Assembly (NCBI RefSeq): GCF_006345805.1
Contig: NC_043007.1
Span: 35,774,001 to 35,838,000 of the forward strand
Reading direction: 5' to 3'
Length of the DNA stretch: 64,000 nt
Source: Octopus sinensis
Lineage: Eukaryota
Shown: piece by piece, positions 22,853 to 60,896 of the stretch
How positions within the stretch are numbered: the stretch's first letter is position 1
How the letters are laid out: each line of letters begins with the position of its first letter
The notes under the pieces: model-generated
What the model was told of the DNA's origin: nothing
The model's database searches: none
Seen by the model: only the letters and a program-made list of their open reading frames with translations
Program-made: the position numbers and the translations under genes

Positions 22853-22993
22853 TATATATACATATATATACACAATATGTTACATTACTCGGTAGTCAAG
22901 ATAAAACTCTGAGTTTCAGATGCCGAAGTGGAAATCCACAACACCATCTCTTCGGTTATCTGGCTATTTGAAAAAACTAGTTTTCAAATAGCC

Positions 22994-23056
22994 AGATAAC
23001 CGAAGAGATGGTGTTGTGGATTTCCACTTCGGCATCTGAAACTCAGAGTTTTATCT
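22994..23056 (+). ncRNA. Type I hammerhead ribozyme variant (CCGAAGA core); mirrored on - strand in the left palindrome arm
   Basis: agataa-CCGAAGA-gatg...catc(t)-GAAA-ctcagag-TT|ttatct; 6-bp stem I; near-palindromic stem III aactcagagtt. Confidence 0.68.
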
Positions 23057-24163
23057 TGACTACCGAGTAATGTAACATATTGTATAGATAAATTTCCTCT
23101 ATTTACATAATATTGAGGTCTCTTTCTTTCTTTTGTTATCTTACCGTTTTATCAATATATATATATACACACACATGCACACATACACACACACTCACAC
23201 ACAATGTACTTCTACACAATTTCCATTTACTAAATACACTCACAATACATTGGTTAGCCTGGGGTTATAGCAGAAAACACTTGACCAAAGTGCTGTGCAG
23301 TGGGACTGAACCAGAATCCACTTGGATGCAAAACAAGATTGATAACCGCAAAGTCATGCCTGTCTCTTATGACTCAATCACAGGAAGACCAGCAGCACCC
23401 TAGGCACTGTTTCAGGGCTTCTGAGACTAGTGGATAGAATTGAGGAGGTTTTGAAAACATTTTTGAAAAAATCAGGTATTTCTAGGTTGACAATCGTCAT
23501 CATCACCATCATCACACCTGTGGATGCTAATTTAGTTAGCAGATATTTTATCTTGATATTTGGTAACAAGTCTCCTCAAATCTGAAGAATCTTTCTTATT
23601 ATTCTTGCAGAATATAGGATGGTACTTTTCTGTAGGTCAACAATGCAAGTTTCAATTCCAATCTGTTTTTTATCATCATCATCATCATCACAGTTACTTA
23701 CTTTTAATCTGCATGTTTGTTGCAATCACTTGCCAAGACACATCCGGGACCCTAGGGCAAGTGAAGGTTAAGAGATATTGAGATATAATTGAAAGCTTGG
23801 GGAAGGGAAGTGGCAGTTGTTGTTGTTATCAGCATCAGCGTCGTTGGGAAAAATATATGAAGCCCTGTATACCCATCATGACTACCTGTAAACAATATAT
23901 GCACAATAAGGTGATCACATATCAAGATAAACAGTTCATGACACTGCAGGTGGGGACCGGTTAGAATTTTGTTCAGGTTGAATAGCCCATCCCGCTCAAA
24001 AGGTCTTTGAATAAAGGTTGTTTAAGGATGTTGAATGAAACAACCATGTTTCCAAAGGTGAATTATCCAAACCCCAAAGAATTCCTCTCAACACATGGCT
24101 GTGATGCTTCCCCGCTACTTCTGCTCATGATCAGAGATGCACATATTGTCAGCTACTTTATTA

Positions 24164-43701: not shown

Positions 43702-43886
43702 ACAGGTTTTAATGCAGTTACCATCTACCAAATTCACTCATGAGGCATTGGCTGGTCTGGGGCTATAGCAGAAGACAGCCCAAGGTGACACACAATGGGA
43801 CTGAACCCAAGCATGTGGTTGCAAAGTCAGTTTCTTAACCACATAATTATGCTTGTGCCCACCATATTATCAACTGTATTTATTTT

Positions 43887-44200
43887 CATTATTTACATTT
43901 GATGGATATTTCTCCTCATGTTGTATGCCCATGGGCATATGGCATAGTGGTTAAGAGTGCGGGCTACTAACCCCAAGATTCCGAGTTCTATTCCAAGGAG
44001 TGACCTGAATAATAATAATAATAATATCGAAAAATACCTTAGGAATGAGAACCCAGATTAAAAATTTCCCCAAGACACCTGATGAAGGCTGGAGGGTATA
44101 TCAGCTGAAACGTTGTGTTAACAACAAACAAGATGAGGACAAATATCCATCAAATGTAAATAATGTACATAATTCCTCGTCTCTTAAATATAGAACTGTA
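43887..44200 (+). mobile_element. tRNA-headed SINE carrying a hammerhead ribozyme and PLE-like tail, with inverted 5' copy of the tail
   Basis: A box tggcatagtgg (43940), B box gagttctattcc (43983), (AAT)n, hammerhead 44074-44119; 43887-43924 is the reverse complement of 44128-44165; 12-bp direct repeat tgtatttatttt at 43875 and 44201. Confidence 0.8.
44074..44119 (+). ncRNA. Minimal type I hammerhead ribozyme
   Basis: gacac-CTGATGA-a-ggctgg/tcagct stem II-GAAA-cg-TT|gtgtt; stem I gacac/gtgtt; loopless palindromic stem III (ACGT); GUU site. Confidence 0.8.
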
Positions 44201-45255
44201 TGTATTTATTTTGACCCAGAAGAGCTGTGAAAATCCTGAACACTTCCCTTGTCATCTGACAAAGCCATAATACAGGAAAGTACTGCTGTTACATCCCACA
44301 GGCATCTTTGACCCCATCCAAAAAAGATCACTTAATTTAGTGGATTTGAATGAAATCCTTCTGAAACTGGACTTGGGATTCATTCTTCTGGTGTGGTGGT
44401 CAGTAAGAAATAAAGCAGCTGTCAAGAGTTGGAGGCATTTTCCTTGTTTGTTCCTTCACCCATATTGTGGACCTGTGCCTCAGTTAAAAATCACCACCAC
44501 CATCATCATCATTATTATCATAATTCTTATCAGAGCACCAGATAAAGTGCTTTGCAATATTTGATTACGGCTTTTTATATTACAAGTTCAAATTTCACCT
44601 AGGTCAACATTGCTTTTCATCTTTACTGGTCTTGTGCCTAGAGCTGGCAAAATTGTTAGAATCATCATTTAACGTCCATTTTCCATGCTAGCAGGGGTTG
44701 GACGGGAAAAACGGGAAGTTGGAGAATCCGGGCAACTTCCCGTCCAACCCATGCTAGCATGGAAAATATCTTGCAGTATTTCTTGTGGCTTTTAACATTT
44801 TGGATTCTATTCCTGCTGAGGTCAACTTGGTCTTTCATCCATCATACCAATCAATTACAAATACACTCCAGCCCCTAACCCCTAGACATAGCCACTACCC
44901 TAATGGCTTCTTTACTATGCTGTTTGGTTTTTTGTTACCTCCATTCAGACACACTCAACTCACTTACCTCTCCTTCACTTATCTTCCAGTACCTACTACG
45001 ACCCCTACATAATCCACTATGCAGTTACTTCTTCCCAAAATTCCAGCAGCATGGAATTCGTTCCTTCAGCATGTCTGCCTTTCTGTTGTTGATTTCAAGA
45101 AAAAATGCTGACAGAAAATTCACTATTCCTGAGAACTAGTGAGAGCTATGGACACAGCTCCTTTCTGCAGACCAAAATAAAGAAAGAAAAACACACACAC
45201 TTACAAAATGAGAGAGGACAACTGTCTCCATCAAATGAGCTTTTTCTGTAATAAA

Positions 45256-60504: not shown

Positions 60505-60790
60505 CTGAAATATATAAAAAGAAAAAAAGGTTTTAACATTCAGCATGGGAAACAAAGAAAAAGCACATAACAAAAACAATCCTTTCTACTATAGGCACAA
60601 AGTCTGAAATTTTGGGGAGAATGGGGCTAGTTGGCTACAACAATCCCTATTTAATTTATCAACCCCCCAAAAGGATAAAAGGCAAAGTTGACTTCCAAGC
60701 AATTTGAATTCAGAACATAACTGACCCTCTGCCAAATGGAGCAAGGTTTAAAGCAAAAAGAAAAAAAACTATAAAGCAGTTAACTATAAA

Positions 60791-60873
60791 GTGTTAACAA
60801 CAAACAAGATGAGGACAAATATCCGTCGGATGTAAATAAAGTACATAATTCCTCATCTCTTAAACATAGAACT
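60791..60873 (+). mobile_element. Solo ~80-bp tail of the hammerhead SINE inserted in a Bax intron
   Basis: Near-identical to 44115-44197; flanked by direct repeat aactataaagcagtt (60767-60781 and 60870-60884). Confidence 0.85.
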
Positions 60874-60896
60874 ATAAAGCAGTTGTTAGAACTCAC

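Follow-up and report, generated by a model that had tools for sequence, protein, structure and literature searches.

A SINE-like insertion in Octopus sinensis as a probable solo terminal repeat of an autonomous Penelope-like retrotransposon

Anatomy of the insertion

The window, by which we mean the whole 64,000-nucleotide stretch of Octopus sinensis DNA analysed here, carries at 43875-44212 a composite insertion in which a tRNA-like head, an (AAT)n tract and a hammerhead ribozyme motif follow one another on the plus strand. The insertion is enclosed by an exact 12-bp target-site duplication (left copy 43875-43886, right copy 44201-44212), and its repeat unit, numbered here from q1 (43933) to q268 (44200), is discussed below as the probable pseudo-LTR (pLTR) of a Penelope-like element (PLE). 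All the parts named in a preliminary description of this locus, namely the A and B boxes, the (AAT)n tract, the hammerhead, the inverted 5' arm, the palindromic junction and the exact 12-bp duplication, were recovered.

Next to the left duplication lies an inverted arm (43887-43927, minus strand) corresponding to q193 to about q233-240 of the pLTR and ending before the terminal tail; the stretches 43880-43927 and 44125-44172 are 90% complementary over 48 nt in inverted orientation. This arm is a second cDNA, internally deleted. It had been described as an inverted copy of the tail, and an inverted copy is indeed present, but what it mirrors is the sequence preceding the true tail at the terminus (q242-268), not the tail itself. 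A 16-nt fold-back palindrome (43924-43939) marks the junction and takes in a 6-nt leader (43927-43932) that is also found ahead of the head in the ORF-linked copies.

The tRNA-like head (43933-44007) has an A box and a B box, which may serve the PLE as an internal Pol III promoter. The A box of the window copy (43940-43950) reads TGGCATAGTGG, with TGGCGTAGTGG as the family majority, and its B box (43985-43994) reads GTTCTATTCC against a majority GTTCGATTCC, the difference being a G>T at 43989. The head is followed by the (AAT)n tract (about 44008-44027), whose length varies among copies, and by the start of the PLE ORF (44045-44200), 52 codons that begin with the AUG at 44045 and stay open across both the hammerhead and the tail. 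The minimal type I hammerhead (44074-44119) is built from stem I (GACAC at 44074-78, GUGUU at 44115-19), the core (CUGAUGA at 44079-85, an extra A, and GAAA at 44107-10), stem II (GGCUG/CAGCC) and a palindromic helix III of the dimer type (AACGUU), with cleavage predicted after 44114. In the window copy, a C>U at 44106 leaves a G-U closing pair in stem II, which, to judge from the sequence, is CpG decay of the G10.1-C11.1 pair. The unit ends with the PLE "tail" of about 27 nt (44174-44200), delimited by the end points q241 and q266-271. Altogether, the window copy differs from the family majority at 11 of 268 positions, including 43989 in the B box and 44106 in the G10.1-C11.1 pair, and with these B-box and stem II mutations it is a decayed fossil; the insertion is a decayed passenger at this locus.

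The window contains a second, 5'-truncated copy of the family (60791-60876, plus strand, q183-268) with a 15-bp duplication (60767-60781 and 60870-60884). This copy begins exactly at the predicted ribozyme cut. Starts at the cut find no support as a general rule for the family and are not enriched in it, q183-185 being the starting point of 1 direct arm out of 87.

Other repeats were observed in the same window. A different tRNA-like SINE fragment lies on the minus strand just upstream of the insertion (43712-43858), and an element similar to it interrupts a copy of the family elsewhere (locus L330). A near-perfect hairpin at 22862-23093, with 113-nt arms, 97% complementarity and a 6-nt loop, adjoins a TA tract and attains the Rfam mir-9 gathering score on both strands; a perfect palindrome of this kind in the genome suggests a MITE or a fold-back insertion rather than a gene for a miRNA. 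Finally, an inverted repeat at 44678-44767 (31 nt, 97% complementary, 28 nt apart) is probably a small MITE or the hairpin of another repeat.

Recognition of the head and the ribozyme

The head matches the A/B-box pattern in the family majority. A check with tRNA callers went against its recognition as a tRNA: ARAGORN made no tRNA call on the head in the window or in 60 of 60 loci, and neither did Rfam, which also assigned the hammerhead to no known family. Aligned with 27 distinct host tRNAs (taken from 30 loci), the head reached z values of about 7.2-7.5 at best, with tRNA-Arg(TCT) on top and the Ala, Cys, Lys and Thr tRNAs scoring close to it; a pattern search for one further host tRNA isotype gave no match.

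Regarding the ribozyme, the hammerhead motif of the pLTR is intact in the family majority, and control PLE loci have a hammerhead of the same architecture at the same position. The consensus thus preserves the core that the preliminary description had expected of it, but not the expected stem covariation, as only neutral CpG decay was seen. Folded as monomers, the head and the hammerhead are no better than shuffles (z = -0.36 and +1.45, respectively), a weak monomer fold being expected of a dimer-type minimal hammerhead (PMC4209133, in excerpt). The predicted hammerhead is probably slow, assisted by dimerization or protein, and dispensable for insertion.

Size and linkage of the family

Of 2,111 candidates in the genome (G000), 40 were scored, and all 40 are near full-length, with 88-100% identity. 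Genome-wide, a 31-nt tail pattern has 3,040 exact matches and a 27-nt head pattern has 3,272, as opposed to 0 for the reversed controls, so the repeat is not a chance assembly; judging from a divergence of about 4%, the family probably has, as an order of magnitude, ten thousand copies. The linkage of head and hammerhead proposed earlier holds at the scale of the family: among 27 distinct head-anchored copies (30 loci with 3 duplicates removed), 21 have the hammerhead, whereas the remaining 6 have either suffered a deletion or are disrupted somewhere from the AAT tract onwards (2 with a partial body, 4 interrupted). Most heads, about 85-90%, are solo, since the ORF end is missing in 24 of these 27 copies, and 10 of 58 head arms are ORF-linked.

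An autonomous Penelope-like element

The identity of the unit is given by what lies on both sides of it in the tandem copies. On its upstream side, the ORF stop codon stands about 30 nt before the head, an exact junction that occurs 408 times in the genome; the ORF end was found directly upstream of the head in 2 of the first 30 loci (L009 and L020), and, when the ORF end plus head was used as the query, 40 of 40 scored matches crossed the junction. On its downstream side, the tail is joined directly to the 5' part of the ORF in about 20 of 60 loci. The order of the repeat unit is thus tRNA-like head, (AAT)n, AUG, hammerhead, tail, RT/GIY-YIG ORF and about 30 nt. A majority unit built from 51 copy segments has 2,648 nt, with a frame of 835 codons running from the AUG at q113 (window 44045) through the hammerhead and the tail.

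The peptide encoded by the pLTR runs on into the reverse transcriptase (RT) and endonuclease (EN) in the tandem copies and matches the N-termini of PLE proteins from other organisms (P0047, E 1e-4; P0010, E 3e-4). The ORF contains an RT domain (PF00078, E 1.5e-9). For its C-terminal domain, modelled at a pLDDT of 66, the top match was I-TevI (GIY-YIG) both with Foldseek, weakly (E 0.28, probability 0.80), and with VIA (Z 6.0, rmsd 4.9, 75 aligned). PF01541 was matched at E 0.23 at residues 740-809 of P0010, a relative with 52% identity; Pfam gave no match on the family's own EN domain, nor did a PDB sequence search with it. These matches to a predicted structure are a weak but concordant indication of a C-terminal GIY-YIG endonuclease. 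The closest relatives (P0001, P0002 and P0010) are 52-67% identical, and no relatives of the element were found in viral contigs.

Further PLE features found are the pLTRs in partial tandem, the inverted 5' arm and the tail at one end. The assignment to the Penelope/Poseidon clade would follow from domain order, hammerhead position and sequence motifs, rather than from an RT tree. The suspicion that a Penelope-like RT/GIY-YIG protein mobilises this repeat is borne out by the PLE insertion architecture and by the head and tail being the pLTR of an element with RT and EN. What found no support is the notion of a SINE that borrowed a pLTR, as the entire unit, head included, is the pLTR of an autonomous PLE, the hammerhead and the tail lie within the first 52 ORF codons, and the solo copies show no lineage of their own.

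We put at roughly 70% the probability that the window insertion is a solo pLTR of an autonomous EN+ Penelope/Poseidon retrotransposon, the mechanism proposed below included. The anatomy, the tandem pLTR-ORF junctions, the two fixed 3' ends, the single fixed 5' end, the inverted arms and the duplications are observed.

Ends, inverted arms and duplications

The family has fixed 3' ends at q241 and q266-271 and a fixed 5' end at q-6 to q+5. These ends were mapped in a tail-anchored sample of 87 copies, which are the first 90 exact matches on contig C1 with 3 duplicates dropped and are not a genome-wide random draw. An inverted segment is present in 52 of the 87, ending at q231-242 in 39 of those 52. 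The short arms end sharply at q241 and the long ones at q266-271, two end points that set off a tail of about 27 nt; its presence at a single end is a general PLE trait (PMC8557442, in excerpt). By analogy with Anolis Poseidon (PMC11167929), q241 and q266-271 may be the RT start sites. Duplications of at least 8 bp, counted by eye, accompany 26 of the 39 copies with a complete inverted arm versus 2 of the 48 others.

At the other end, 47 of the 87 copies reach the head, and 33 of these stop within q-20 to q+8 (binomial p 8e-23 against an assumed 10%). The remaining 14 continue, and 2 or 3 of them are ORF 5' fragments at the junction; together with a non-randomly chosen copy that ends at about q-17 (L010), they show that read-through templates exist. 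In the sample, end values of q-17 to q-20 are fold-back junctions aligning to the hairpin. Read by eye, the non-ORF arms have their start between q-6 and q+5, which places it some 13 nt ahead of the A box. The fold-back junction itself has 370 exact matches genome-wide, some of them counted twice, once per strand. ORF-bearing copies also start at the 5' end of the head (L191, L196, L205 and L212), and L204 and L209 are read-through tandems. Another 16 of the 87 copies have their 5' end at q71-110, which may reflect alignment breaks within the AAT tract.

Two solo insertions (L007, at about 1460-1500, and L178) carry a short piece of the ORF 5' region between their two arms, which suggests a template jump onto a long PLE RNA during solo synthesis.

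Transcription of the element

In the family majority both the A and the B box are intact, and the 5' end lies about 13 nt ahead of the A box. On this evidence, we lean slightly towards the boxes setting the start, so that Pol III would make the transcript. The composition of the element points the same way: the 2,648-nt majority unit has no run of four T, and its ORF has 28 runs of four A. The probability of zero TTTT is 0.026, 0.022, 0.003 or 0.075 under four nulls, and 0.038 when the expectation is taken from 24 control PLE families (2.15 runs per kb); the decayed copies of the family have 0.45 TTTT per kb. The ORF stretch is likewise free of TTTT in 3 of the 24 control families, which makes this test weak.

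The control PLEs were taken from metagenomes, since all 30 loci from a protein search of the genome turned out to be copies of this one family; 58 of 80 metagenome loci, left after near-duplicates and short matches were dropped by eye, collapsed to the 24 families. Among the 23 control loci showing both the ORF end and the hammerhead, A and B boxes between the two were found in none (counted by eye). One of the control families without TTTT in the ORF stretch (the L299 group: L257, L290, L292, L299 and L311) has a pLTR that is very rich in T and contains a hammerhead but lacks a tRNA head. In L247, Rfam gave a tRNA match of 38.6 bits at 2513-2580, on the strand of a control PLE ORF that is truncated at its 5' end and begins about 420 nt further downstream; the match probably comes from an adjacent SINE or tRNA.

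Raw reads from three RNA-Seq runs of a related organism, together with a single contig set, were aligned to locus L222. The family and its fold-back junction are present among the RNA reads, which cover both mate directions equally; their depth tracked the genomic 3' bias and skipped the AAT region. On the L222 stretch used, which is minus-strand and lacks roughly the first 300 nt of the ORF, reads piled up neither at the predicted cut of the ribozyme nor at the head, and they pointed to no transcript start or strand.

The main competitor to Pol III transcription, unlikely but with the best standing among the alternatives, keeps the same PLE pLTR and has it transcribed by Pol II, with the head carried along as a passenger, the remains of an old and simple SINE that became fixed there. 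The 5' pile-up would then be due to snap-back of the cDNA at the hairpin before the head, unless Pol II itself starts at this point. Precedents exist for both parts of it, as the TATA-less internal promoter of the Drosophila virilis Penelope resembles those of Drosophila LINEs (PMC2377424), and rotifer PLEs show palindromes at the pLTR 5' end and self-priming (PMC3846280, in excerpt). Those rotifer palindromes come with predicted Pol II motifs, so that a sharp 5' end does not identify the polymerase (PMC3846280, in excerpt). The ORF-linked sequence of the octopus element itself makes a hairpin around the leader, the evidence from TTTT is modest, and Pol III has been held by Kojima to be too weakly processive for autonomous elements (PMC10886601, in excerpt). 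Besides, an uncapped Pol III RNA has no explained route to translation, and this counts against Pol III. Pol II transcription is in turn disfavoured by the intact A and B boxes of the majority, which lie as far from the mapped 5' end as they would in a tRNA gene, by the 6 of 58 head arms of the unbiased set that begin at the short leader without any fold-back remnant, and by the absence of TTTT across 2.65 kb.

Taken to its full extent, Pol III transcription would make this element a coding retrotransposon transcribed by Pol III over its full length (2.6 kb or more), from a captured tRNA-SINE head, with a coding strand purged of TTTT, whose uncapped or ribozyme-cut, possibly circularised, RNA is translated and which sheds SINE look-alikes by the thousand through internal RT initiation; we hold this complete version only tentatively, at somewhat less than even odds. 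As to the origin of the head, it is plausible that a simple tRNA-SINE received a PLE insertion in its (AAT)n tail, because Anolis Poseidon prefers cutting at ATT (PMC11167929).

Origin of the solo copies

The abundance of solo units would probably follow from the way the PLE is copied. Tandem master copies would be transcribed from the head, and RT would start internally at two tail sites, as it does in the Poseidon element of Anolis carolinensis, where initiation takes place inside the RNA at two tail-bounding sites and requires ORF sequence beyond them (PMC11167929). In that element, the ORF begins at the hammerhead and ribozyme cleavage is dispensable (PMC11167929). Initiation at the upstream tail, about 270 nt from the transcript 5' end, would yield a solo unit with the look of a SINE, whereas initiation at the downstream tail would yield the ORF-bearing copies. 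The head-to-head inverted structure would then arise from cDNA ends that fold back, or anneal, at the GCCC/GGGC palindrome of the terminus; self-priming at palindromes has been proposed for rotifer PLEs (PMC3846280, in excerpt). Internal RT initiation at either tail would explain together the excess of solos, the sharp 5' end and the shared variants.

An improbable alternative is that an independent tRNA-SINE lineage took over the pLTR, and that its solo genes are copied in trans by the PLE protein. It would suit the SINE-like look of a family with about 85-90% of its heads solo, and solos with intact boxes could be transcribed. The head, however, belongs to the autonomous element, as seen in the 40 of 40 junction matches and the 408 exact junctions, and no diagnostic position splits solos from ORF-linked copies. 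Their non-CpG divergence is alike (3.7% in solo and 4.4% in ORF-linked copies), three non-CpG variants (64A, 151A and 220G) travel together as a subfamily that is no more frequent among 71 ORF-linked arms than among 88 solo ones or the reverse, and, out of 43 variants tested between the two classes, only two CpG sites differ (p about 0.005). Subfamily variants shared at equal frequency mean that no independent SINE lineage is seen. Moreover, the minimal template of Anolis Poseidon reaches past the RT start into the ORF (PMC11167929), a part that is absent from the solos. Set against the definition of tRNA-SINEs, as excerpted from PMC3531059, the unit does have an internal, tRNA-derived A/B-box head, without a cloverleaf call. 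Membership in that class was rejected, the unit being the pLTR of an autonomous PLE and not a distinct non-autonomous family copied by a LINE, and having fixed ends at q241 and q266-271 directly followed by target sequence in place of a 3' simple-repeat tail.

A non-LTR retrozyme, in which tandem hammerhead repeats give circular RNA monomers, is very improbable: the type I hammerhead and the kinship with pLTRs would fit it (bioRxiv 10.64898/2026.07.22.740005, in excerpt), but among the mapped loci there are no head-to-tail arrays of the 268-bp unit, the tandems hold the ORF instead of being the short ORF-less hammerhead units by which retrozymes are defined (bioRxiv 10.64898/2026.07.22.740005 and PMC7229834, both in excerpt), and the cleavage site lies within 2 nt of the start in only 1 of 87 direct arms.

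Comparison with known systems

The octopus element shares with Anolis Poseidon (PMC11167929) and rotifer Pen (PMC3846280, in excerpt) a single ORF with RT and C-terminal GIY-YIG that starts from the hammerhead of the pLTR, the partial tandems, the inverted 5' arm, an optional one-end tail of about 30 nt, the short target duplications and the palindromes at inverted junctions. Contrary to them, its pLTR opens with an A/B-box head and (AAT)n, its unit has no TTTT, and solo pLTRs dominate. The PLE promoters described in the sources at hand are of the Pol II type (PMC2377424 and PMC3846280, in excerpt).

The ribozyme itself is no different from the minimal hammerheads of metazoan PLEs, with which it has in common the short helix I, the extra base before helix II, the G10.1-C11.1 pair and the palindromic helix III (PMC4209133, in excerpt). 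Those hammerheads are mostly single, dispersed and derived from truncated PLEs, and a tRNA head is not described for them in the excerpted text of the same source (PMC4209133). The Schistosoma Sm-alpha and Sj-alpha repeats also have a Pol III-type promoter followed by a hammerhead; they consist of non-coding units in tandem whose hammerheads are canonical, and the excerpted text names no autonomous partner for them (PMC6765202), whereas the octopus unit is the pLTR plus the 5' coding part of an autonomous PLE.

A promoter of similar origin is found in the terminal repeats of the TRIMp3 elements Cassandra, Helenus and Ajax, which bear a small-RNA-derived Pol III promoter, possibly derived from a SINE (PMC10886601, in excerpt). 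These are non-autonomous, non-coding LTR elements of up to about 1.3 kb, and their autonomous partners are held to need Pol II (PMC10886601, in excerpt). The octopus element differs in that the promoter-bearing repeat sits on the autonomous element.

Octopus tRNA-SINEs named OK, OR1 and OR2 were reportedly described by Ohshima and Okada in 1994, and the present unit is possibly an OK/OR1-type repeat under an older SINE name. OR2 is classed as a CORE SINE, which the octopus unit appears not to be (PMC4758252, in excerpt). In the literature searched, no PLE with a tRNA-derived pLTR head came up, and no such link is mentioned in the excerpted text of either of two papers on cephalopod repeats (PMC13282606 and PMC8967140). 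The family may already be named in Repbase, Dfam or SINEBase, or in supplementary data to PMC13282606 or PMC8557442. As far as the sequences allow us to say, the new part would be a tRNA-type promoter at the start of a PLE, which is absent from 23 of 23 control PLE loci.

Implications

Autonomous retroelements are usually transcribed by Pol II (or by Pol I read-through in the case of R2), and Pol III serves only short non-autonomous ones. If Pol III drives the octopus element, this split between autonomous and short retroelements would be broken, and the element would offer a simple system in which translation from Pol III transcripts or ribozyme-processed RNA could be tested. Whether or not Pol III is involved, some abundant "tRNA-SINE" annotations may be solo Penelope pLTRs. 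With its thousands of copies, the family would also chart where RT starts and where the RNA begins in vivo, and the mapped ends bear on how the inverted arms and tails of PLEs form. Should the full Pol III interpretation be true, a route from a PLE to SINE-like families would have been caught in the act.
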